Below, in pieces: positions 1,620-26,455 of a stretch of 64,000 bases of DNA. The translations under genes and the position numbers were made by a program. A model generated the notes under the pieces. That model ran no database searches. It saw nothing but the letters and a program-made list of their open reading frames with translations, and was not told the origin of the DNA. The stretch lies in IMG/VR virus record IMGVR_UViG_2061766007_000025. One strand, given 5' to 3'. The stretch is from an uncultured virus (IMG/VR IMGVR_UViG_2061766007_000025). Its lineage: Duplodnaviria > Heunggongvirae > Uroviricota > Caudoviricetes. The stretch's first letter is position 1. Each line of letters starts with the position of its first letter.

Positions 1620-4379
1620 ATGGCTACAAATACCCAAATAGTCAATTACGGAACACTATCTAAACGGTTAGCATCATGTAATGACAATAAACAGAGTATT
1701 TTTAAAGCAAAAGATGTATTTAAGAAATATGATAATCTAACTAAGATTATGGAAAATACAAATGCATCAGATCAATCACTTAAATCAACTATTAGGGGTG
1801 TATTAGTAGAATTTGCTAATACAAATGTTGCTCAGGATTCTGTAGAACCTATACTTCATTTAGTTGAGGTTTTTAATGAAAAGAATTCTTATATGGCATC
1901 ATATATCGTTAATACATTTACTTCTAATATTCTTCCATGTATAAAGGATTTATCTTATTTACCAGAAACTGTTAGTAGATATGAAGAAGTTCTTTCAGAA
2001 GATCAAAAGAATGAAATATTATCTACTGCTAGTTTATATGAAGCAGCTGATAGAATATTAAAGAATCATGAATTTATATCTAAGAGATTTAATATTTCTT
2101 CTATAGTAGATAAGATTAATTTATATGGCTTAAATAATGTAGTATATGAAGTATCAAAGATGATAGATACTTATGATGTTACTCCATATCAAAAGCTTAA
2201 TATATGTATGGAAGAATTAACTTATCTTTTAGATAAGAAAGGTATAAATTATTCTAGAAAAGATTTAGTATCAGAAGCATTAAAATATTTCTTATTATCT
2301 ACAGAAACTTTAAACCATAAAGATAGAACAGGATATAAAGTTGCTATAAGTGAAAGTTATTGTTTAGGATTAGATGATAATGATATTAAATCTTTCTCTT
2401 ATATATGGAATGAATCTATAGATGGAGAAGAAGCCACTATAGAAAATGCTATACATACATTCTTATCTGCTTCTGAAAAGACACCAGAAGCACTGCAGAT
2501 TTGTTTAAATATAGTTCTTAAGAGTAATCCTGCACATTTTGCTTATAAGTTTGGTGATATTATTGATCTATTATGGTATGTATACAGATCAGAATTAATG
2601 GAATCAGAAGATATATACTTCATAGTTGATGAATTCATAGATGAGTTATCCAATCTGATTAAGCATTATATAGATTCTTCTGATATTATAAACAAAGAAT
2701 ATATTATATCTATCTGCAATGTAATAGAAGAAGTTAGAGTTAATGTATTAAAAGTACCTTCGAATACAGAGATATGTAGTGAGTTTTTATCAGCTTTAGA
2801 TAAGTTTAGAAATGTATTAGATGAATATTTGGATATTGTATATACAGAGTATAACTTAAATATCATTGATAAGATCAATACAAGCAGTAATACTGTTACT
2901 TTAGTTGATGAAGGCAAATTCTTTAAAGGTGGTTTATTAGCAGCTGTTAGAAATTTAGATAAATACCTTAAAGAAAAATGTGATAAGACTAAGAAACAGG
3001 CTAAAGATAAGTTAGATACAGTAACTGATAAGATTAAAAAGGTGTTATGGCCTGAAAATGAATCATATTCTATATATTCATTTATAGGAGATGATACTAA
3101 GGTAGATATGTGTTTATATAGAGCCGAATTAACAGAAGATATGAATACATATTTTATAAGTAAGGAACTGGACACATTATGCCAGGAATTCAATTATCAA
3201 CTAGATCTATCTAATACATATAATGCTAGATGCTATTATCTTATTAACCCAGGCGTAGCAGAGATACATTTAAAGAGTTTAAATAATATTCTTCTTACAG
3301 AGAAAGATTTATCTCTTATAGCAGAATCCGATAAACCAGATTTTGATTTCTATATAGAGAAACTTGCTGAATGTGTAGCTTATTCAGATCTATTAGAAGA
3401 ACATACTCCTGAAGATATTATGCAGGAGGTATATTCTAAAGTAGAATATCTTAATAAAGATTCTTTCGATACTGTATTAGAAGCTTTATCCATTATAGGA
3501 GTTAATAATACAGATATATCTATATTGACTGAAAAATATCTTGATAGTATGTATATTCAAGAATCTGTTGATGCTTATGAATCGGAACAGAAGTTAATTG
3601 AAAACACTGTTAATAGTTGGGAAGCTTGCACCAATATACCATATACTTCTCAGATACAAGCATATCTTGTGTTAGAAGCTATATTATCAGAAGCTGATAG
3701 ACCTACATACTTTAGCACAGTTAAAAGTGATAAAGAAGCTAATGATGCAGCAGCTAAAAAGAAATTAGAAGCCGATAAAGCTAAATTAGCTAAGCAAAAA
3801 GAAGAAGCTAAAGCTAAAGAAGAGAAAGAAGAAGTTAAGAAGAATCCATTTAAAGGTATTAATGTAACTAACCTTAAGTTATTCTTACAAGGACTTAAAG
3901 TTTCTTTTAAAGATATGTCTCAGAAAGAGAAAGAATTATCTCGTAATGTAGATGTTGTAGCTAAACAATTAGTAAAATCTTTCAAAGATGCTATGATATC
4001 TGATAGAAGAGAAGCTATTATAAAAGGATCTGTTATTCCTTCATTCTCTAAATGTATTAAGATAGCTATTGCTTTAGCAGGTATTGGTCACTTTGTTGGA
4101 TTTGGTGCTGCAATAATTACGGCTATTGGTGGATTTGCTATATCTAAGAGACTAACTCAAAAAGAAAGAACTTTATTACTTGATGAAATTGATACAGAAC
4201 TTGAAGTTGTGGATAAAGAGATATCTATAGCTGAAAGTAATAATCAGATGAAGAAGTATAGAGCTCTTCTTAAATATAAGAAAGATCTTCAAAGACAGTA
4301 TCAAAGAATTAGATATAATATCAGAGTTGGTAAAGATATATTACCTGGTTCTACTGTTGGTCTTAAGAATAATGACTAG
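1620..4379 (+). CDS. Large virion/head-associated protein (919 aa)
   Basis: Long ORF with GGAGG RBS and late promoter, upstream of the capsid gene; hydrophobic segment and coiled coil at the C-terminus; several hydrophobic-x-E motifs. Confidence 0.55.
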   Translation: MATNTQIVNYGTLSKRLASCNDNKQSIFKAKDVFKKYDNLTKIMENTNASDQSLKSTIRGVLVEFANTNVAQDSVEPILHLVEVFNEKNSYMASYIVNTFTSNILPCIKDLSYLPETVSRYEEVLSEDQKNEILSTASLYEAADRILKNHEFISKRFNISSIVDKINLYGLNNVVYEVSKMIDTYDVTPYQKLNICMEELTYLLDKKGINYSRKDLVSEALKYFLLSTETLNHKDRTGYKVAISESYCLGLDDNDIKSFSYIWNESIDGEEATIENAIHTFLSASEKTPEALQICLNIVLKSNPAHFAYKFGDIIDLLWYVYRSELMESEDIYFIVDEFIDELSNLIKHYIDSSDIINKEYIISICNVIEEVRVNVLKVPSNTEICSEFLSALDKFRNVLDEYLDIVYTEYNLNIIDKINTSSNTVTLVDEGKFFKGGLLAAVRNLDKYLKEKCDKTKKQAKDKLDTVTDKIKKVLWPENESYSIYSFIGDDTKVDMCLYRAELTEDMNTYFISKELDTLCQEFNYQLDLSNTYNARCYYLINPGVAEIHLKSLNNILLTEKDLSLIAESDKPDFDFYIEKLAECVAYSDLLEEHTPEDIMQEVYSKVEYLNKDSFDTVLEALSIIGVNNTDISILTEKYLDSMYIQESVDAYESEQKLIENTVNSWEACTNIPYTSQIQAYLVLEAILSEADRPTYFSTVKSDKEANDAAAKKKLEADKAKLAKQKEEAKAKEEKEEVKKNPFKGINVTNLKLFLQGLKVSFKDMSQKEKELSRNVDVVAKQLVKSFKDAMISDRREAIIKGSVIPSFSKCIKIAIALAGIGHFVGFGAAIITAIGGFAISKRLTQKERTLLLDEIDTELEVVDKEISIAESNNQMKKYRALLKYKKDLQRQYQRIRYNIRVGKDILPGSTVGLKNND

Positions 4380-4399
4380 AAAGGAGGACTAGATATCTT

Positions 4400-5104
4400 A
4401 TGGGATTCATTAAAAGAAATATGACTTTTACTAATTTACTTGAAGCAGAAGTTGATGATATGAATGCTATATTAACTGGTGGAATGGATGCTGGATCTAA
4501 AGATTATTCTACTAATGATGCTCCACCAGCAAATAATAATCCAGAGAATACAGATCAACCTGCTGAAGATAATACCCCTGCTACGCCAGAAGATAATGCT
4601 GGAGAAGAAAATACAGATGATGGAAATCTTGATGGTGCTAATCCAGATGATGATATTAGTATAGATACATCTCTTGATATAGGAGATGATAGCAATGATA
4701 CAGGTGGGGATACTATACCTACAGATACTACATCATCTACACCAACTACTGGTGAAGGAGAAGAAAATAAAATCAATACAAATATGTTTACTTCTCTTAG
4801 TGCTGAAGAGCAAGCTATAAAGATTACTGAGTTAAAGAGATTATTTACTCAACTTCATTCTTCATGTGAGGATATGTTAGATAAGATTAATAATATAGAT
4901 GTAACCTCTGATAATATTAAACATATCGATAGAATTACTTCTACTTTATCTGATCTGAAAGAATATATAATGGCATATGTTACTAAGAATTTTATTATAA
5001 ATTCATATTATCAGAATGATGTTATGTATAACAGGTTCTTAACTATATTTAATTCAGTATCTGTAGCACTTTCAGACATATCAAACCTATATAAAAAGAA
5101 ATAA
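4400..5104 (+). CDS. Acidic protein, candidate prohead scaffold/core protein
   Basis: AAGGAGG RBS; D/E/N/T-rich linker, LLE motif near the N-terminus, helical C-terminus; immediately precedes the capsid gene. Confidence 0.45.
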   Translation: MGFIKRNMTFTNLLEAEVDDMNAILTGGMDAGSKDYSTNDAPPANNNPENTDQPAEDNTPATPEDNAGEENTDDGNLDGANPDDDISIDTSLDIGDDSNDTGGDTIPTDTTSSTPTTGEGEENKINTNMFTSLSAEEQAIKITELKRLFTQLHSSCEDMLDKINNIDVTSDNIKHIDRITSTLSDLKEYIMAYVTKNFIINSYYQNDVMYNRFLTIFNSVSVALSDISNLYKKK

Positions 5105-5116
5105 CATAATGATAAA
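5103..5116 (+). promoter_or_regulatory. AR9-type late promoter motif
   Basis: AACA-TAATGA-TAAA about 100 nt upstream of the capsid gene. Confidence 0.6.
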
Positions 5117-5215
5117 GATTAGTAGTGCTAATTGTAGGCATTTCTATTCTTAAAATTAGCTATATGAAAGATAATATAATATCTTTTAAAATTCTTTAGA
5201 AGGAGGAATATAACA

Positions 5216-6976
5216 ATGATTGCTGGCGAGAGACAGAAAAAGCTTAACGGTAAAGCTTACCGTAATGATCCGCTTTATGCTTTTGGTAAGGCATTCACAG
5301 AAGCTGCTCAGAATATTTTAACAACTGAGAGCTTTGATATCTTTTCAGAGCCAAAGAAAGCAGTTAGATCTAATGCTGTTAGAGAAGCATTACGTCAGTT
5401 CTTCTGCGAGAACTTTGTAAATGAGGAAGATCCAACTAAGTCCCCTGAGGAGATCGAGGACGAGCTCAATGATGTTAATGAGCAGTTTGAAAATGATATG
5501 GAAGGTATCCAGGAGAATTCAGCTATGAGTGAGTATTCACCTATGGTTGGTATGGCACTTCCAATTCATAAGCTTATCCTTATGAACAACGTATTTGCAC
5601 AGGGTAATGGTATTCAGAAAGTTACCGCTGTACAGCCTTCATTCACAATTTCAATGGAGAGAAGGCTCCTTGTTACTCCTGATGGACAGGAAATTGATAT
5701 GTTCGTAAATCAGAATCAGATTGCTGATGCTATTGATTCTACAGCTCCTACTGTTACTGTAGAACTTTCACTTCCTGAAAAAGGAACAACTGATATCCTT
5801 GGAACATATCTTCATGGTACAGCTCTTGATGAGCTTTCAACAGAGACACATGTTTCTGGTATCTATGTTGCTAACGTTTACATCGCAGAGGGTGATCACC
5901 TTCCAGATGCAGATGGTTGGATGACAACTAAGGGTGAGGTTGCTACTGCTGAAACAGCTGGTACATACAATGTATGGTTCCCAGTTAATATTGGCTTTAC
6001 ACCTGCTTATGGCGGACCTAACAAGCTTGAGAGAACACTCACAAAGCCTGTTACAATTAAGTATAAGACAGATGCAGCTGGTACTATCGCTACACTTCAA
6101 GATACACTCTTTGGTTCAATGAACAATAATAAGATTAATCTTCTTACTGTTCAGGGTGCTATTACTAAGGTTAGACTTGCTGCTAAGCTTAATACTTCAA
6201 ATGCTATGCTTGATACTTGCTCAGTAAAATGGAAAGTTGATTCCGATTACGTTGAGATTCCTGAGGCAACACCTGTTAATACAACCATTAGCCCAGAAGA
6301 GGTTAAGGATATTGCAGCTATGTATGATGCAAATCAGGTAACTAAGATTATGTCTATGACAAAGACAGCTCTTAGTGAGTACAAGGATATGAAGATCAAG
6401 AGACAGCTTGATTCTGAGTTTGATAGAATGGATGAGAGAAGATCATTCCAGGGTGAGTTCGACTTTGCAGTTCCAGAAGGTTATGCACTTGACTGGGTAA
6501 CACATCGTCAGGCTACATTTATGGATTACTTCGATGATCTTGTAACAAGAATGCTCCAGGTTTGGAACGATACTAATATGACAATCTCTGTATTTGGTGA
6601 TCCACGTATCGTACGTAAGATTACTCCTACAGACTATACATATCAGGCTCCTGCAAGCATTGGTCCTGTTACACTTGACTATACTCAGACAATCGTAAAT
6701 ACAAAGGATCAGAGAGTTTATAGCTTCGTTGGTTCCGACAAGCTTCGTAACACAAATGAGCTTATGGTTCTCCTTAATCCTCGTAATACTGAGCGTATTT
6801 GCTTCAGAATTTATGATTATCAGCTTTACATCTCAAATGAGATTCGTAATGCTACTAATCCAGCTCTTCCTGCTATCCACAGCTTCGAGAGATGGAAGAT
6901 GATCAATTACCAGGGCGTAATGGCTAAGGTTAATATCCTTAATCCATCTGGTATGCGTGCACCACAGACATTCTAA
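5216..6976 (+). CDS. Probable major capsid protein precursor (586 aa)
   Basis: Strong RBS, late promoter and terminator; more C-ending codons than neighbours; acidic N-terminal region ending near IQE-NS; size and context fit an AR9/phiKZ-like MCP. Not database-verified. Confidence 0.65.
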   Translation: MIAGERQKKLNGKAYRNDPLYAFGKAFTEAAQNILTTESFDIFSEPKKAVRSNAVREALRQFFCENFVNEEDPTKSPEEIEDELNDVNEQFENDMEGIQENSAMSEYSPMVGMALPIHKLILMNNVFAQGNGIQKVTAVQPSFTISMERRLLVTPDGQEIDMFVNQNQIADAIDSTAPTVTVELSLPEKGTTDILGTYLHGTALDELSTETHVSGIYVANVYIAEGDHLPDADGWMTTKGEVATAETAGTYNVWFPVNIGFTPAYGGPNKLERTLTKPVTIKYKTDAAGTIATLQDTLFGSMNNNKINLLTVQGAITKVRLAAKLNTSNAMLDTCSVKWKVDSDYVEIPEATPVNTTISPEEVKDIAAMYDANQVTKIMSMTKTALSEYKDMKIKRQLDSEFDRMDERRSFQGEFDFAVPEGYALDWVTHRQATFMDYFDDLVTRMLQVWNDTNMTISVFGDPRIVRKITPTDYTYQAPASIGPVTLDYTQTIVNTKDQRVYSFVGSDKLRNTNELMVLLNPRNTERICFRIYDYQLYISNEIRNATNPALPAIHSFERWKMINYQGVMAKVNILNPSGMRAPQTF

Positions 6977-16648: not shown

Positions 16649-18709
16649 CTAAATTAATAAAATATATAGTAATGCTTCTTCTATAATAATATCAGTCTCT
16701 ACATTGATAGGTTTACCATGCATAGCCCCTGCATATTTTATAGGTTCTCCATTACAACCTGGCCTCATTTCTGTATTATTCTTATCAAAATCTATAATAC
16801 GGAAACTACTTGTAATTATAGTAGCTATAGTTCCAAGTATCTGTCTTTGAATCTTATCATTCTTATATTTATCCAGTGTTAATTGATAATACTGGGATGC
16901 TTCCATCTTTACTTGCTCTTTCTTATTAAGAGTTTTTCTAGATGCAATCTTATCAACTTTAGATGATATGATATAAGGTAAAAATCCCATCATATTATCT
17001 TTAAGTATCTTCTTAGCAGCTAGCATAAGTTTAATATAATCAATACTATTAATAGCATTAGGAGAAGAAGTATCTCCAAAATACTTATAGAAAAGATTAA
17101 ATACTAGTTGCTTCTGAAATCCATTCATGATTTCACCATTATCATTTCTAAGTTCATGCATATAGAAATTAATTTCATCCTTATCAAAAGGACCCCACTG
17201 TCTTTCTATAATTTCCATAACTTTTTGACAATTAAACTTAGATTGTAAGAATATAGCTTCATCGGCTTTAACAAGATTGGCTTCGTATTTCCTTACATGT
17301 TCACATAAGCTCGTTACACTTATGCGGTTCTCTTATGAACTCCTTCATATCTCTATGAAGAGCAGACTATATCATTATCTCATTATTAAATGAGACAGCT
17401 CCCATTTCCATTTAAAGCGACTTACGTAGATCTAAATACTGCGCTACCACTTGGCTGTACCCTACTCACTTCTCATATATAAATTTCTTTATATATAATG
17501 CTTTCGTTAGTCGTTGAACCTTACCCTTTCGGATCTTGGCTGCTGATTATCCATTTTTACGTACTTTGACCTAGAAGATTACATCTAGCATTTCCATCAC
17601 TAAATAATAAACCTACTATCAACCAAGTTCTAGAAAGCTTGGCTCCACCCGTTTGCTACGAGCAGACTTAGTATAATAACCTTATTTTTAATGCTTTAGG
17701 ACTTCCCAGCAATTAAAGAGCTTTTAACTACATATCACTATGTAGCTGGACTATTACGTCAATCCAGATCTGAAGCACTATCTTCACCATCTCCTGGTGC
17801 TGAACTTAAAGGTATATAGTTATATTCATATGCTATATCTGTTACAGAGAATTTATTACTCTTCTGTATAGAAGTATAATTTAAACTAACCATATTCTGA
17901 TTAAATGCATATTTAGGCATAATGTTTAAGATTATATTTCTTACAGCTTGCATAGAATGAGTAACTACATCTTTACCTCTAATATCTTGTTTTGACCATA
18001 TTACTGCATTATTCTTAGCATTTCTGTTTACATTACTTATTGCTGTTTGATAAAGTTTACTAGATATATCCATATTTGCAAACTCTTGATAATAAAGAAT
18101 ATCATCAAATACATCTAGTATGAAATCATCTATATTTTGTATTCGTCTAGAATATGCAAAATGAGTTATAAGTGGAATACATAGATTCATAAATATACTC
18201 ATAGCTAATAATGTCTTAGCATGTTCATCTGTATATTGAAGCTGTGGGTTATTTATAGACTTATATGATAAACTAAGACTATAATTATATTCTACCATAG
18301 CTCTTATCTTTGCACATAGACTAGGCTGTATTATATATCTTCTTACATCATAAATGAAGTTCTCTTTTTTATATTCCTTTGTATAAACATCTAATAGATA
18401 TTTTATTTTCGCTAAGTTAGTATAATATTCTTTGTCTTCATCAAAGAATCTCTCAAAGTAATTCACGTACTGACAATAATGGTTCCTCAAGTCATCAGAG
18501 TTATATGACTTCTTAGGATTAACCATAAAATAGTTAATACTTATACCTGCATCTTCAGATAGATGAAAGTAACTATTTAGATTTGCTATAATGATATTTT
18601 TAGAATTTGTAAAAAGTATGTCCTCATGTTGAGGTATCCATTCATCTACGAATGGTATATTAGTTTTTGTGTCGCCCATAATCTTTAAGAACTCCTTTAT
18701 AGATTTCAT
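16649..18709 (-). CDS. Intron-split gene, exons 18709-17762 and 17290-16649 (529 aa); candidate sigma-like promoter-specificity subunit of the non-virion RNAP (AR9 gp226-like)
   Basis: Removing the intron fuses ...DSASDLD|KYEANLVKADE... in frame. Function is inferred from size and position two genes from the chaperonin (AR9 gp228/gp226). Confidence 0.55.
17291..17761 (-). ncRNA. Group I intron (471 nt, no ORF)
   Basis: Core elements P AATTGCTGGGAA, Q AATCAGCAGCCAAG, R GTTCAACGACTA, S GATATAGTC; P1 CTGGAT/GTCCAG with U.G; terminal G restores the frame. Confidence 0.92.
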
Positions 18710-19610: not shown

Positions 19611-21455
19611 TTACTGTGCCTGGTAAGGTGCTGAAAGGCTAGGGTCCTGTAATAAACACTGATTACATGTAACCATGATAGTAATAATCTTAGCTAATGT
19701 ATCAAGTACATTCATATCAAGAATGATAGAACATTTTACCTTATCATTAATGTCTTCTAATAAAGGAAGATTACCTGAACTGATATCGTATGGTCTACCA
19801 ACTTCTAGACTATGATAAATATGGTTATCAATATTATCATCATCACTATCTACTGTACCATATAATATCTTAGATATTTCTATATAAGCTTTAGAAATAC
19901 ACTGAGCTACATCAAGATCGATACCTTCAGCATCAGAATATTTCTTTAAGTTTTCAATAGAAGCTTTAAGTCCTTCAAAGTTAGCAGCATAGCCTACGCC
20001 ATTACTAGCAGCAGAACTACAGTTCTTAATAGCATCTTCTGCTAAGTCTTTAGTAGCATCTCTATCTGCTATAGTAACACCACCAACTAAGAACTCAGCC
20101 ATATTAGCTTTAAGTGCTGCTAATCTCTTCTTAAGTAATCCAATACTATTAGCATTATCATCTGCTTTTGTATTTTCGATCTCTGTCTCTAAGAAGTTAA
20201 TCATAGAAGTATAAATAGGGTCTTCTACAAACTCACCATCTTCATTCTGTGTATGCATATGAAGAGGATTGATAAACTTAGTTCTTCTAGAATCTGCTGA
20301 TACTAATTCTGCTTTTCCGGCAAATGTAGAGATATTCTCAGGTGTAGGAGCTTTTCCTTCTTCTACTTCTTTAGCATATATCTTAGGATCAATATATTTT
20401 CTAATATCTTTACATCCACAGAGATTGGCAATATCATCCATAATGATTTCATCAGATGCTACAACATTGGTAATTATAAGAATAGGTGGTTTATCGCTTT
20501 CTCTACCAGCTGAATTGAACTGATATAACTGATTAGATAATGCTTTAAGCTGAGAAGATAAATCAGCAGAGATTCTAGGACAAGTAATTACTGTAGGTAC
20601 AGGCGCTTCTCCATTAGATAATGGTTCATAAATATTCTGATCTATAATAGCTTCAAATAAGTTGATCATATTCATATCATCAATAGGATCAACAAAGTGA
20701 TAGATATTAGCATTATAAATATTAGAAGTACCATTAACTTTATTATTTATAAATACTGGGTCACTCATACCTTCAGTAATAGTAAGACCATCATATGTCT
20801 TTACCAAGTTATCAGTAGTATTAGAAATACCAACAGATAAATCTACATCCATGCCATATTGCTTATAAATCTCATAAATATTATTAGAGATTTCTTCATT
20901 ACCATTAGTAGATATCATAGCAATATCATAAATATCATCTAATGTACATTCCTTGGTGTTATTCTTGATAATTTCTTTGATGTCTTCTACCTGCTTCTTA
21001 AATAATCTAATGATCTGGAAAGGAGGAATATTGTATTTCTCCTTAATATCAATAAGATTATTAAATATAATAGAAGAAAGAATAACAGTAGATGTAGTAC
21101 CATCTCCTACTTCTTTTTCTACATGTCTGGTAATCTCTATAAGCTCTTCAATAATAGAAGCTTCAATAGGACCAGAATTAGCAATGTTCTTTAATACTTT
21201 AAGACCATCTTTAGAATATGTAGAAGAAATAGACTTTCTACTTTCTCCACTAATAATCTTAGTATTAGATCCCATAGGACCAAATGTTTTAGATAAAAAA
21301 CTCTTAGCTTCTGCTAAAGTTTTCTTCTGAATCTTTCTTAATGTCTTCTCATCAATAACGTTATTATTATTGGTTCCTATAGTTACACCCATAGGAATCT
21401 CTTCTTTAATTACTGATGATTCTGTTGCAGTTCTGATTAACTGATTAATGTCCAT
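19611..21455 (-). CDS. groEL: Phage GroEL-like chaperonin (614 aa)
   Basis: TFGPMG, SKDG..V, VGDGTTS, IAMISTNG, VGG and EDA motifs of chaperonins. Confidence 0.92.
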   Translation of the reverse strand: MDINQLIRTATESSVIKEEIPMGVTIGTNNNNVIDEKTLRKIQKKTLAEAKSFLSKTFGPMGSNTKIISGESRKSISSTYSKDGLKVLKNIANSGPIEASIIEELIEITRHVEKEVGDGTTSTVILSSIIFNNLIDIKEKYNIPPFQIIRLFKKQVEDIKEIIKNNTKECTLDDIYDIAMISTNGNEEISNNIYEIYKQYGMDVDLSVGISNTTDNLVKTYDGLTITEGMSDPVFINNKVNGTSNIYNANIYHFVDPIDDMNMINLFEAIIDQNIYEPLSNGEAPVPTVITCPRISADLSSQLKALSNQLYQFNSAGRESDKPPILIITNVVASDEIIMDDIANLCGCKDIRKYIDPKIYAKEVEEGKAPTPENISTFAGKAELVSADSRRTKFINPLHMHTQNEDGEFVEDPIYTSMINFLETEIENTKADDNANSIGLLKKRLAALKANMAEFLVGGVTIADRDATKDLAEDAIKNCSSAASNGVGYAANFEGLKASIENLKKYSDAEGIDLDVAQCISKAYIEISKILYGTVDSDDDNIDNHIYHSLEVGRPYDISSGNLPLLEDINDKVKCSIILDMNVLDTLAKIITIMVTCNQCLLQDPSLSAPYQAQ

Positions 21456-22137: not shown

Positions 22138-22919
22138 TATTCCATCAGTCCTTCAATATCATCAATACTTGTCTGATCTATATGCTTAATACCTGAAGTG
22201 AATCCGCCACCTGCACTATAGTTTCTCTGTACATTGCTAAGTCTTTCAATACCAAGCTTATCATAAATAGGATCCATCTTGCCAAGAATACGTGCATGAT
22301 CATAACGTGTAAGATCAGCCTGAGCATATGCAAATGCACCGGTCATACTTCTAGCAAAGTCCTCTAATAATGAAATAAGCTGCTCGATCTCAAGATATGA
22401 ATATGATACAAGAGATACAGTTTCCTTAGTAACATTGTTTACGTCTTCTACTTCAAGTGCTGTATAGTAATCGATAGTATTAAGCTTAATAGAATGAAGA
22501 CTAGTAACTTTTTCATTCTCATCAAGTTTACCAATAGCAAGATATACATTACCATTAGCCTGATAAATATTAGAGAATGTCTCTTTGCCAGGAAGACCAA
22601 CAATAATACCAAATCCATTATTATCTTTTACTTTTCCTGCTTTAAGAAGCTCTAAAAACTTCTTAATCTCATTTGCATAAATCTGAGCCTTGTACTGAGA
22701 GATAAAGATAGATGTTAAACTATCATACTTAAATCCATCAACTAACTGATTGATCTCTAATACAAGAAGACCAGTACTTCTAAATGATACAGATAAAGTA
22801 TTCTTTGTATCATCATCTTTAATCTTGAATCTTGAGTAATAATTTCTCTCTACAGAACCATTCTTATTACCCTGATTTGAAACGTTAGACTCTCCTGTGA
22901 ACCCACTACCAATTGCCAT
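22137..22919 (-). CDS. Hypothetical protein (260 aa)
   Basis: AGGAGG RBS; acidic C-terminus reminiscent of ssDNA-binding proteins (weak). Confidence 0.7.
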   Translation of the reverse strand: MAIGSGFTGESNVSNQGNKNGSVERNYYSRFKIKDDDTKNTLSVSFRSTGLLVLEINQLVDGFKYDSLTSIFISQYKAQIYANEIKKFLELLKAGKVKDNNGFGIIVGLPGKETFSNIYQANGNVYLAIGKLDENEKVTSLHSIKLNTIDYYTALEVEDVNNVTKETVSLVSYSYLEIEQLISLLEDFARSMTGAFAYAQADLTRYDHARILGKMDPIYDKLGIERLSNVQRNYSAGGGFTSGIKHIDQTSIDDIEGLME

Positions 22920-23093
22920 TTTTCTTTCCTCCTGAAAAGTATTTAATGATTTTAAGTTTTAGNNNNNNNNNNNNNNNNNNNNNNNNNNNNNNNNNNNNNN
23001 NNNNNNNNNNNNNNNNNNNNNNNNNNNNNNNNNNNNNNNNNNNNNNNNNNNNNNNNNNNNATTTTACATCTTAGTAATAGGGGTGATTAGGAG

Positions 23094-23858
23094 GTGATTA
23101 GATTGTCATATATACAAGATAATAAACTACTAAATCTTTGTAATGAGAAAGATCATTATGATGTTATAAGTTATATAGTTAGTATATTTACTACAAGCGA
23201 AATAGATACTATAGTGCAAGGTTTATCTAGTATTAATATACTTACTATAAGGGATATACAATATAAAAGTTTTAATATATACTCTATAAGATTTATTAAT
23301 GGTAAGAAGTTAGAGATTAATGATATATTAGATTTAAATAAGTTTAACTTATCATTTAGAAGAATAGAATTAATAATAACTAATAATACTGATGAAAAAA
23401 TTATATATTTTAAATACTGTAGTAGAATATATGATATGTTAAACTGCTTAATGTGTAAATCTTATAATATGTCTAGATATCAAGATATATACAGTATACC
23501 AGGATATAATAGTAATAATATAATAGAAAACTATGCTAAAGAATTAGCATTACTATTAAAAGATGATTATGAATCTTTAAATGATATAAGATTTACTACG
23601 TATGAGATTATAAATAATAAAGCTACATATAACTTCTCTAAAAACTTCTATAAACTATATAAGTTTAAAAAGCATTTAGAAATGGAGATTATTATAAAAT
23701 CTAATCATATAATAAAGATTCAAATTACCGATACTGACAATTGTACTAATCTAATTATGTATACTTCTAGAGATATTATAGGGTTAAATAATATAATACA
23801 TGCTACAGAAATAACTTATAAGAAAATGCAAAGAGAATACCCTACGCCTTTATACTAG
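23094..23858 (+). CDS. Hypothetical, very AT-rich protein (254 aa)
   Basis: Open frame preceded by promoter motif TACA-TCTTAG-TAAT (23065-23078) and followed by a hairpin; exact start uncertain. Confidence 0.6.
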   Translation: MIRLSYIQDNKLLNLCNEKDHYDVISYIVSIFTTSEIDTIVQGLSSINILTIRDIQYKSFNIYSIRFINGKKLEINDILDLNKFNLSFRRIELIITNNTDEKIIYFKYCSRIYDMLNCLMCKSYNMSRYQDIYSIPGYNSNNIIENYAKELALLLKDDYESLNDIRFTTYEIINNKATYNFSKNFYKLYKFKKHLEMEIIIKSNHIIKIQITDTDNCTNLIMYTSRDIIGLNNIIHATEITYKKMQREYPTPLY

Positions 23859-23868
23859 GCGTAGGGCA
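23838..23868. terminator. Bidirectional terminator
   Basis: CCCTACGCCT-TTATACT-AGGCGTAGGG between convergent genes. Confidence 0.8.
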
Positions 23869-23895
23869 TCTCTTTTTGTTAGTACGGAGAATTAT

Positions 23896-26419
23896 TTATG
23901 CAAAAGAAATGTTAGCGGTAATCTTTACATCTGGTAATACTCTGGTTAAAGCATATGATGCTTGTGCACAGTCTGAACATATAGTCTTAGTAGGTCTACA
24001 ACCAAAGTCCATGAAATTTTGTTTAGAATACATAAATTCTTCCAACTCATCATTAGCCTCAGTTGTATAAACACCTTTACATGTAATTTGGTCAATTATC
24101 TTTACCATAAGCCGTGCTAAGTCTTATGATGTGCTTTAATAAAACACCTCATGAATTACCATGAGTTGAGACTATTTGTACACCCAATAAATATATTGGG
24201 GCAGTATTTTTCTTCCTCCATTAAGCACTTGAGGTTTTACTCTCCCGTTAGGAGATAGTCGTTGAACGTTCTTCTATAATATAGAAGCTTCGCTGCTATA
24301 CTAGGCTTGTTAACGATAACTTAGGATTTAACCTTATTATCATCTATATAACTTTTTTCTGCTTTCGCAACATTCACGCTTGATATCACTATCTACGTTG
24401 TAGTGTATATAGTTCTTGACCTTTTCATAGCAATTAACACTGGAAAACATACCTATTACTAGATATGCTGAGCTCCATTACTCCGTCGTAGTCAGCATCC
24501 ATTGCTTTTAGATATATATTAGACATACGCAACGTATCTACAAATGAATTAGTTGTATCTTTTCCTATATCTTCTTCTCTTATCTTAGGATAGTATGGAT
24601 AATATATATTATTAAAATACATAGGTTCGGTATCTATAGTAGAAGCAACTACAGCACCCATAGTAATTTGATTTGTATATTTATCACTTTAAACTCTATA
24701 TATTTCTATATAAACCTGACTATATCATAAGCGTGCATTCTAATAGAATGTTTAGCTTCTCCCTACTTCGAATCTAAAATATTTTAGACCCTACACGGTT
24801 ACACTCATCACCGTTAGTCGATGAACCTTATTCCTTATAATAAGGAATCTTGGCTGCTGATTTTCTATTATATAAGTACTTAGGTTTACACCATATACCA
24901 TCTAATCTATTTTTTCTACTTTCGTCGCATTCACGCTCATCTTTACAGATCACGTTGTAGCTAGATTAGCTTTAAGACGTTCCAGCAATTCAAGGAGTTA
25001 TTTCTTAGCGGTTTCCCTGCTAAGCCGACTGATAAATTTAATCGGAAATCTGGCTATAAGTACTTTCTTATCTTTTAATGCTTCGACTGCAGCTATATAG
25101 AATATATCACACCATGTCATTCTTCTTTGATAGATAGATTCTGGATTATTTTTTGCAGTTCCTGGATTTTGAAATCTTCCTTTAAATGTCATATAGTACT
25201 TTTCCTTAGTATCTTTCAATGGCACTTCTATAGGAATAAATCTATTATTGTATCCATGAATAAATCTTTCCATCTCATGTTTTATACGCTCATCTGAAAA
25301 AAGATTTATTTCTGGATCATCTACTTCGAAATTCTTTACTTTTCCATTCTTATCTATTACAGCATACTGTGTAAGACCATTAAATTCATTTTCAAAGAAA
25401 CTTTTTACATGAAAAGTTACAAAGTCTCTAAATTCTGCTATAGCAGCTGGTAATGGTAAAGCACAATGCTCAAAAGTAACCATCATATCTTGTGGCGTTT
25501 CTGCTTTAAGTTCTGGAGCAGATATTACAAGTCTTGAGGAGAAGTCTGCTGTCTTTGACATATTAGTTCTTCTAATATAACCAAACTTACCAGATAATCC
25601 AGAACCTGCATCTTCTGATAATGTAGGATTATTATTACCACAGAACCAATCATATATAGATAAGATTATCTCTTGTACTCTGCCTTTCATGGCTTCAGAT
25701 GAATCAAACATATAATCTCTTGTAGCGGTAAGTGCATTTGTAGCTACTATAAGATTATTATATATCTTATTTATACCACCTAGACCTACAGTTCTAGATC
25801 CTGTGTTCTTATCTCTATAGTATGGCGGTATTACAATATATTTGTTTATAAACATCTTATCTCTATTAAAATTAAGATATTGTATTTTTATATCTCTCTT
25901 TAGAGATTCTGTAGATTTAAACTTAATCTTATCTATATTCTTTCGTAAGAATTCTATTCCTGTTTGGCCTTTTGGATCTTGTACTAGTTCTCCTCTATCA
26001 TTAATTCTATATGTATCTAATCCATGAACTATATTTTTTACATTAGAATCTATTCTACACCAAGCTTTATAGCAAGAAGGATCTATAAAGTAGCCATGTA
26101 AATCTATATAAGCAAAAGTTCCTGCTCTATCAGCTTGTGTAACACCAAATATCTCCTGACTTAATAATCCTTCAGGACTAGGTATAGCTTCTCTAATAAA
26201 AGCTCTAGGATCTGATACAGGTTTACAATTATTTACATGAACAAATCTATCTACATCTAATACTTCTAGTTGTAAATGCTCAACTACCTTATCATACTGA
26301 GCTTCTGTTAATATTTCAGAATTTAGATAACTATTAGCTTCATCAAAGAAATCTACAACATCTGTAGTATTTTTTTCTATATGCGCTAGCTCTCTAAGTA
26401 TGTTTTGAGTACTTAACAT
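23896..26419 (-). CDS. rpoC: Phage multisubunit RNA polymerase beta'-like subunit carrying the catalytic motif; exons 26419-25041, 24686-24481 and 24092-23896 (about 593 aa)
   Basis: EGLLSQEIFG, VIPPYYRD, GKFGYIRR...K..DFSSR.VI, R.P and the spliced ADYDGD motif; AAGGAG RBS favours the start at 26419. Confidence 0.9.
24093..24480 (-). ncRNA. Group I intron (about 388 nt, no ORF) inside the DYDGD motif
   Basis: P AATTGCTATGAA, Q TAGCAGCGAAG, R GTTCAACGACTA, S AAATAGTC, three P9-type hairpins, ends AATTG. 5' boundary uncertain by 1 nt. Confidence 0.85.
24687..25040 (-). ncRNA. Group I intron (354 nt, no ORF)
   Basis: P AATTGCTGGAA, Q AATCAGCAGCCAAG, R GTTCATCGACTA, S GATATAGTC; P1 CCGAT/GTCGG with U.G; splicing gives RFPI-DKYTNQ in frame. 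Confidence 0.92.
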
Positions 26420-26441
26420 AATGCTTCTCCTTTCTTTATGC

Positions 26442-26455
26442 ATTATATTAATGTA
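26442..26455 (-). promoter_or_regulatory. AR9-type late promoter motif
   Basis: TACA-TTAATA-TAAT upstream of the RNAP gene RBS. Confidence 0.55.

Follow-up and report, generated by a model that had tools for sequence, protein, structure and literature searches.

Introduction

The T4 td and Twort orf142 introns, both inserted in conserved codons of essential genes, combine a short P1 helix, a guide near the 5' end, a P2 helix and a core with P7.1 and P7.2; the U of a U-G pair is the last base of their 5' exon, and the terminal guanosine (G) of the intron is used by group I chemistry. The intron analysed here is like them in layout and kind of insertion site, and unlike them in the last base of its 5' exon. 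It lies in a 64,000-nucleotide (nt) stretch of DNA, hereafter the window, from an uncultured virus of the Caudoviricetes (IMG/VR record IMGVR_UViG_2061766007_000025), where it interrupts a gene for a subunit of a virion RNA polymerase (RNAP) within the codons of the catalytic DYDGD loop. This intron 2 (24093..24480, minus strand; 388 nt, without an open reading frame, ORF) is most probably an IA-like self-splicing group I intron of the IStron-B lineage that is cut one phosphate 5' of U24480, so that the exon would end in G. The position of the cut rests on the coding constraint and on analogy to the IStron BcISt1.

The closest described systems are the group B IStrons, namely BcISt1 of B. cereus ATCC 10987 and CbISt3/4 of the C. 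botulinum phages c-st and D-1873. According to the passages of Tourasse, Stabell and Kolsto (2014, PMC4227781) that deal with these elements, the exon upstream of these elements closes with a G, and the intron opens with a U; the U-G pair lies one base pair off the splice site and the loop follows directly after it. In reverse transcription PCR of BcISt1, the U was missing from ligated exons and present in full-length circles, which places splicing after the G (PMC4227781). The same passages describe the last 5' exon base in other cases as 'virtually always a U (or exceptionally a C)' and count the D-1873 element among the group B IStrons. A preliminary description of the window had treated its splice site as apparently new, whereas such a site had already been described there for group B IStrons; the G-ending register is rare, but known in kind. 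The word 'Staphylococcus' does not occur in the text of that paper, and our literature search returned no description of IStron-type splicing in Staphylococcus or jumbo-phage introns, which is weak evidence of absence.

The window intron resembles the group B IStrons in the exon-end G and first intron base U, in a U-G pair beside the P1 loop and one base from the splice site (GGAG|U AAUGGA GCUC), and in an IA-type ribozyme that aligns with the CbISt4 copy in D-1873. It differs from them in having neither an ORF nor the IS607/IS605 module (ORF A, a serine recombinase; ORF B, TnpB), in a P1 loop of 6 nt where theirs is long and AU-rich, and in a 3' end that reads AAUUG after short hairpins, in place of CGG and a long AU-rich inverted-repeat stem. 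Its target ends in AG, like that of CsISt1, and not in GG. It occupies a fixed site in an essential phage gene, where a homolog at the locus L006 (L-numbers are our labels for collected sequences) carries an HNH homing endonuclease, and it therefore appears to spread like a homing intron and not like a transposon; unlike homing group I introns, the window copy itself has no endonuclease gene. The intron of Staphylococcus phage vB-SscS-F1 (F1) shares with it the guide GCUC, the 6-nt P1 loop and the absence of an ORF, but its host is a siphovirus tail gene. The introns of phage AR9 g145 and its metagenomic relatives share the gene and the same two target regions, and the second AR9 intron interrupts the same motif at a point 4 nt upstream (GAU|GGU). 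In contrast to intron 2, those introns have canonical ends (U as last exon base, G as last intron base), and their ribozymes are of other subfamilies; those of AR9 also contain homing endonuclease genes.

Coding constraint on the junction

On the minus strand the sequence around intron 2 reads GAC TAC GAC GGA G(24481)|T(24480)AATGGAGCTCAGC ... AAAGATAATTG(24093)|A(24092)CCAAATTACATGT. Exon 2 (24481..24686, minus strand), delimited by tblastn against intronless relatives, ends in GAC UAC GAC GGA G, that is D, Y, D, G and the first base of an Asp codon; exon 3 (23896..24092, minus strand) starts with AC CAA AUU ACA UGU, which supplies the rest of Asp and leads into Q I T C K, and continues through the stop codon. 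Read in this way, intron 2 splits the DYDGD codons, and the 5' exon has to end in G24481 if both the catalytic Asp and a terminal intron G are to be kept.

This constraint was examined exhaustively with 98,406 pairs of exon end and intron end around intron 2, screened for an open frame and then for D[YFW]DGD. An open frame was obtained with 11,871 pairs, 19 of which restore the motif; all 19 place the exon end at 24483, 24482 or 24481, and in none of them does the exon end in U. The preliminary description had held that only cleavage after GGAG restores DYDGDQ, and this is borne out; an alternative canonical pair that restores DxDGD, for which it had left room, is absent from the pairs tried. 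A terminal intron G together with the length of exons 2 and 3 in the relatives (133 amino acids, aa) is given by the pair 24481/24093 only. The pair 24481/24123 also has a terminal G but was rejected: it would add 10 residues seen in none of the 91 intronless relatives, and G24123 sits within a hairpin stem. Joining G24481 to A24092 yields DYDGDQITCK (predicted ligated junction GGAGACCAA), and D[YF]DGD is uninterrupted in the 91 intronless relatives (90 single-match loci and LPJP1).

Predicted fold and splicing mechanism

The P1 hairpin (24470..24483, minus strand) would bring exon bases G24483, A24482 and G24481 and intron base U24480 together with G24473, C24472, U24471 and C24470 from the internal guide sequence (IGS), in the pairs G24483-C24470, A24482-U24471, G24481-C24472 and U24480.G24473. 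It is closed by the 6-nt loop AAUGGA (A24479-A24474) directly beside U24480.G24473, and the UGG of this loop is able to pair with the CCA of exon 3 (P10). The P1 drawn in the preliminary description (GAGT/GCTC, with the U.G pair one base later than the cut) is thus present in the sequence. The layout is common to F1, Romulus, CbISt4 and L006, with co-variation of exon and IGS. The P2 hairpin (GCAUAUCUA-GUAA-UAGGUAUGU; 24447..24468, minus strand) follows one base (A24469) past the IGS and is found both in the minimum free energy (MFE) fold and in a consensus fold of five relatives. P7 (24170..24260, minus strand) pairs GACUAU at 24260-24255 with AUAGUC at 24175-24170 and encloses P7.1, P7.2, the 3' strand of P3 and P8; in the consensus fold, 6/6 of its pairs are conserved wherever a sequence covers the column. 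With helix names assigned by inspection, the modelled layout of this region is that of subgroup IA.

The 3' domain (24093..24165, minus strand) consists of P9 (24165-24160/24153-24148), two more hairpins, one of which is CAUAAG/CUUAUG at 24128-24123/24111-24106, the tail AAAGAUAAUU and the terminal G24093. The tail is similar to those of the AR9 intron (..GGAAGAUUUUG|GGU) and the L026 intron (..GAAGAUUCG|GAU), both of which end in G at unambiguous junctions, and G24093 aligns with the terminal G of the AR9, L026 and L006 introns. The MFE of intron 2 has a z-score of -4.4 (0/100 shuffles fold as well), and the consensus fold contains 71 pairs, 31 of them with compensatory changes, with P4, P6, P7 and the P7.1 hairpin kept. 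The only ORFs of at least 40 aa within the 388 nt are the read-through from exon 2 and the start of exon 3. Although its Rfam score is weak (see below), the stretch aligns end to end with its relatives and folds with this z-score, and we take it to be a genuine group I intron. The terminal G and the covariation-supported core helices are those expected of the group; the U of the P1 U-G pair, by the same expectation the last base of the exon, is here the first base of the intron.

In the proposed mechanism, exon GAG would pair with guide CUC, with G24481 opposite C24472, and U24480 would wobble with G24473 atop this short helix and beside the loop. Guanosine would attack the bond between G24481 and U24480, after which the loop UGG would pair with the CCA of exon 3, G24093 would enter the guanosine site, and the exons would be joined at A24092. 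Ligation would give GAC GGA GAC CAA and restore the Mg-binding DYDGD loop of the virion RNAP beta' subunit. The U-G pair (C-A in L006) would still be the recognition mark, the scissile bond being offset from it by one, and such an offset may let the lineage use G-ending sites that lack a U.

Ribozyme lineage and homologous introns

In our phage collection, the ribozyme closest to that of the window comes from the intron that interrupts F1's major tail gene (79.6% identity over 202 nt; 76.7% over 242 nt). Elements of Staphylococcus Silviavirus phages (Romulus, DELF3), which are followed by an IS605 OrfB transposase, match at 72% over 282 nt (E 9e-29), and a 'Group I catalytic intron' beside a transposase in C. 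botulinum phage D-1873 matches at 84% over 63 nt (blastn, E 1e-7). The window intron aligns end to end with the F1, Silviavirus and D-1873 elements. A family profile built with the window included and searched with nhmmer against 134 sequences (1.04 Mb) recovered full members only in the window, in L006 and among the profile's own sequences. In every member but L006, a G-ending flank is paired to the guide, and the next base is a U opposite the G that precedes the guide: the window has flank GAG, U and guide G-CUC, F1 has AGAG, U and G-CUCU, Romulus has CGG, U and G-CCG, and D-1873 has GAGG, U and G-CCUC, its copy reading GAGG|U...GCCUC. Exon and guide co-vary accordingly (GAG/CUC, AGAG/CUCU, CGG/CCG, GAGG/CCUC), and by these comparisons the intron 2 ribozyme belongs to the group B IStron lineage.

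The F1 intron (432-812 of MW589261.1, L129; ~381 nt, ORF-less) can be compared with empty sites. The record annotates two coding sequences (CDS), a 'hypothetical protein' and a shortened 'major tail protein', and no intron. Two in-frame options exist: AGAG|U...UUUG|GAACAUAC, giving Arg-Gly-Thr, and the canonical GAGU|...UUGG|AACAUAC, giving Arg-Val-Thr. The intronless tail genes of TPWB06 (protein 99% identical; AAA AGA GGA ACA TAC) and PG-2021_4 (96% identical; AGA GGT ACT TAC) encode Gly and not Val, so F1 fits splicing after G. The intronless homologs S-CoN_Ph7 and LP-101 have Ala at this codon, neither Gly nor Val.

In the Romulus portal gene (L127/L133), as in group B IStrons, the element follows GG, has U as its first base and closes with GG. 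The DELF3 copy (L128) lies in a tail lysin gene, again with an IS605 OrfB transposase following, and its guide mismatches its flank. On the D-1873 contig (L132), a RAGATH-18 RNA match (RF03064, 61.7 bits) at 4342-4411 comes just after the transposase gene and close to the IStron's 3' end.

Introns at the same site in related phages, whose comparison the preliminary description had proposed, are represented by L006, where a homologous intron is found in the same register. The host protein of L006 is 59% identical to that of the window, and the two introns are homologous throughout. The L006 junctions read GAC GGA G|CUAAUUAC...AUAUUCG|AUCAAAUU, and ACUC-A-P2 with a GUAA loop stands in place of the window's GCUC-A-P2, also with a GUAA loop. 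Flank GAG is followed by C, opposite the A of guide A-CUC, so that C opposite A replaces the U-G pair; since no U follows the exon G, there is no canonical reading at this locus. In L006 the P1 loop is enlarged by 40 inserted nt, and the intron also contains an ORF of 292 aa with an HNH_3 domain (E 1.2e-8). The C-A pair, although a single case, suggests compatibility with a wobble-shaped pair that is still read.

Alternative readings of the junction

The best surviving alternative, which we nevertheless consider improbable, is a canonical cut after U24480 with joining to A24092, leaving an extra U in the messenger RNA and either a dead gene, a truncated subunit or recoding. The P1 geometry is indeed canonical for U24480.G24473, and the guide is continuous with GAGU+ACCA. 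The product (GGAGUACCAA) would read GGA GUA CCA AAU UAC AUG UAA, as the preliminary description had already worked out, so that the frame stops after six codons and the third Asp, kept in 91/91 intronless relatives, is lost. Recoding by a +1 shift would put Tyr (window) or His (L006) at the position of the third Asp. L006 shows the same offset without any U, and recurrence of the same DNA in sequencing runs of 2011, 2015 and 2025 suggests a circulating phage, which sits poorly with a dead gene. BcISt1, with the same P1 anatomy, splices after the G in the experiments reported for it (PMC4227781).

A second alternative, also improbable and placed behind the first, would give the same messenger RNA from other boundaries, with the exon ending at A24482 (or G24483), the intron at U24094 (or U24095), and G24093 belonging to exon 3. 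Both 24482/24094 and 24483/24095 give an open frame with DYDGD, and the other introns in the motif lie at codon boundaries (in the group at the first GAU, at the boundary or one base later). The intron would then lack a terminal G, while the 3' tails of the AR9, L026 and L006 introns place a G at the aligned position, and the relevant passages of PMC4227781 establish the U as first intron base in BcISt1.

Still less probable is the absence of productive splicing, with two polypeptides, one ending soon past DYDG and the other starting at ATG 24108 (MVKIIDQITCKG...). An in-frame ATG does occur 15 nt before the 3' junction (ORF 23896..24108), but no ribosome-binding site is recognisable upstream of it by eye and L006 lacks an in-frame start codon at this position; two chains would have to share the catalytic loop, an arrangement seen in 0/126 sources, and the stretch between the exons is a complete ribozyme. 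Least probable of all is a one-base assembly or sequencing error that creates the apparent offset: the window is a metagenome assembly and only contigs were compared with it, but the X1 and X2 contigs are identical to it over 1,251 nt, X5 agrees across the 5' junction, and L006 and F1 show the same offset independently.

That comparison was made on Logan contigs and not on raw reads. X1 and X2 (depth 13-16) have 0 differences from the window over 23850-25100, and X5, a 254-nt contig from another study, covers 24232-24485 with 1 difference, at 24433. Assembly error is unlikely, because three assemblies are concordant and L006 has the same arrangement; recurrence in other phages is a stronger argument than agreement among contigs. 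Of the three readings that the preliminary description had offered, the shifted register after G is the one retained here, while downstream frameshifting is disfavoured by the Tyr or His in place of Asp, and a 1-nt assembly error by the three assemblies and L006.

Cleavage before U24480 remains our preferred reading, and several observations weigh against it. Helix continuity and the usual rule both favour GAGU+ACCA (8 nt, one A-A mismatch) as partner of the guide UGGAGCUC over GAG+ACCA, with which one further base of the guide strand stays unpaired. The F1 comparison depends on one codon, Gly versus Val, and the Romulus portal case does not discriminate because a U occurs on both sides of the element. 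X1 and X2, from one sample, are probably the source of the window, so X5 alone is independent, and it has a depth of 2.1, reaches only 5 nt into exon 2 and covers the 5' junction only. Among the sequencing runs searched, no RNA run holds this stretch. The intron has no insertion sequence and ends in UUG rather than CGG, which makes it a relative of the IStron ribozymes and not an IStron. Its match to RF00028 is 19.5 bits (E 0.033 in a 1.5-kb search), below the gathering score of 50, and whole-window (64-kb) searches returned no RF00028 match for it. The same model gives the F1 intron 45.9 bits and the IStron relatives no match at E 0.01, and it therefore seems to cover the lineage poorly.

Introns in the RNA polymerase motif of related phages

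Loci were gathered from metagenomes, IMG/VR and species genomes with the exon 1 protein and a 13-sequence alignment, and 126 sources were examined, the window, AR9 and LPJP1 among them. The motif is uninterrupted in 91 sources (90 single-match loci and LPJP1) and interrupted with both sides visible in 29 (three of them duplicate entries of two contigs); three show an intron from its 5' side only, and three have no match to the C-terminal probe. The 29 interrupted sources reveal six insertion points within ~16 nt of GGN GGN GAY UAY GAY GGN GAY. Introns lie after the second GGU in L004, L005, L009, L010, L030, L043, L044 and L088 and as the first intron of L028 and L029; after the first GAU or one base later in L007, L025, L124 and L122; after UAU in L031, L033, L045, L098, L103, L105, L106, L112 and L116 and as the second intron of L028 and L029; after the second GAU in AR9; after GGU in L026; and after GGA-G in the window and L006.

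The motif introns comprise several unrelated ribozyme subfamilies. A U-ending exon with a terminal intron G is possible in 25/29 interrupted sources; the four without such a canonical reading are the window, L006 and the identical pair L049/L050. Derivation of the window intron from an L026-type intron (GGU|GAU) by a slide of one base was considered and rejected because the two ribozymes belong to different subfamilies.

The L049/L050 intron (~4950-6245, UAU|GAU site) reads GAC UAU G|AACCUAAUC...UUAAAUAG|AUGGAGAU; DYDGD can be obtained only with an exon-end G one base 3' of the U-G pair and a terminal G, or with a canonical 5' cut and an A-ending intron. Its sibling introns (L112, L045, L116, L031) read UAU|AAACC...G|GAUGG, and its offset runs in the direction opposite to that of the window. 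At L028 (4956-5551) and L029 (4956-5544), two back-to-back group I introns (Rfam 79.3 and 69.7 bits) flank a 6-nt micro-exon, GACUAU, which encodes the D-Y of DYDGD; L030 carries only the first of these introns, and L031 and L033 only the second.

Host gene and other features of the window

By similarity, the product of the three-exon host gene is the N-terminal beta' subunit of the virion RNA polymerase in an AR9-like jumbo phage. Exon 1 (25041..26443, minus strand), placed with the ORF list, tblastn and PHROG, holds the N-terminal half of the gene and ends in ...CGA UUU CCG AU; it matches Listeria phage LPJP1 rpoC1 (tblastn E 3e-47), AR9 g145 (E 1e-42) and PHROG 2986, 'RNA polymerase beta subunit' (E 3e-45), and Pfam returned no family for exon 1 or exon 3. 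Exon 3 is 62% identical to L015 (tblastn E 2e-21), and exons 2 and 3 align without gaps to intronless relatives (LPJP1, L015 and others), in which the motif reads ...GADYDGDTLSIRGVFSAEAN (LPJP1) and GGDYDGDQCTVKGVYTTEAN (L015). The nearest relatives of the gene, L034 and L035 (63% and 62% identity in exon 1), are both intronless at the motif and read DYDGDQITCK. The window DNA is present in bovine gut metagenome runs, of 2011 and 2015 and, from another study, of 2025, and this recurrence suggests that the phage is still circulating.

Intron 1 (24687..25040, minus strand), recognised by RF00028 (58.4 bits, E 7e-14 in a 1.5-kb search) and by its junction, is a group I intron of canonical form. 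The exon before it stops at U25041, paired to G of GUCGG, its last base is G24687, and the junction CCGAU|UAAAUUU...UUUAAAG|UGAUAAA restores RFPIDKYTNQ (compare RFPIDSYTNQ in L015). It splits RFPI|DKY, and the intron of AR9 g145 lies a few codons further on (RYPIEQYR|NIYPSK); L034, L035 and L006 have no intron at this position. A third group I intron (17343-17773, minus strand; RF00028 76 bits, E 1.7e-17) is flanked by ORFs 17759..18709 and 16649..17218, and its 5' junction, CUGGAU|UGACG, pairs with GUCCAG and looks canonical.

Rfam answers vary with the size of the search: intron 1 scores 58 bits at 1.5 kb and was missed in both 64-kb searches, of which the 'evalue' mode gave no match and the 'gathering' mode the third intron only, both RNAP introns being lost to filters. 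Just downstream of the gene cluster is a run of masked bases at ~22960-23060 (X in ORF 22913..23074). A 614-aa ORF (19611-21455, minus strand) with GDGTTS looks like a phage-encoded GroEL-type chaperonin, by eye only, and by the same means a similar ORF is seen at the same relative position in L004.

Implications for phage introns

On present comparisons, the window intron belongs, without a transposon of its own, to a lineage for which a G-ending 5' splice site was demonstrated in 2014, and here the protein code fixes the junction. Whether G-offset splicing is heritable within the ribozyme lineage and not bound to IS607, the transposon having been shed to leave ORF-less (window, F1) and HNH-bearing (L006) phage introns, is a question on which we are evenly divided. 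If it is so, the offset would open G-ending sites without a U, such as GGA-G in the RNAP catalytic loop, where canonical introns have already taken five U-ending codon boundaries close by. The case also broadens an observation that is seldom cited: the G-ending 5' splice site of group B IStrons appears not to be tied to the transposon and recurs in compact phage introns, in two genes with the junction fixed by the code or by an empty site.

In L006 the +1 pair is C-A instead of U-G, which suggests continued reading of a wobble pair by the core, with cleavage of the bond before it; if true, natural sequences are available for testing how the 5' splice site is measured by group I ribozymes, and variants for experiments on splice-site choice (U-G, C-A, differing P1 loops) are already on hand. 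For annotation, the consequence is practical: programs that assume an exon ending in U would place the junction one base off and call an essential RNAP subunit frameshifted or split, and the F1 tail gene, annotated as two CDS, seems to have been mis-called in that way. With six insertion points in ~16 nt, the catalytic loop of this polymerase is also a clear case of introns crowding an active-site motif.

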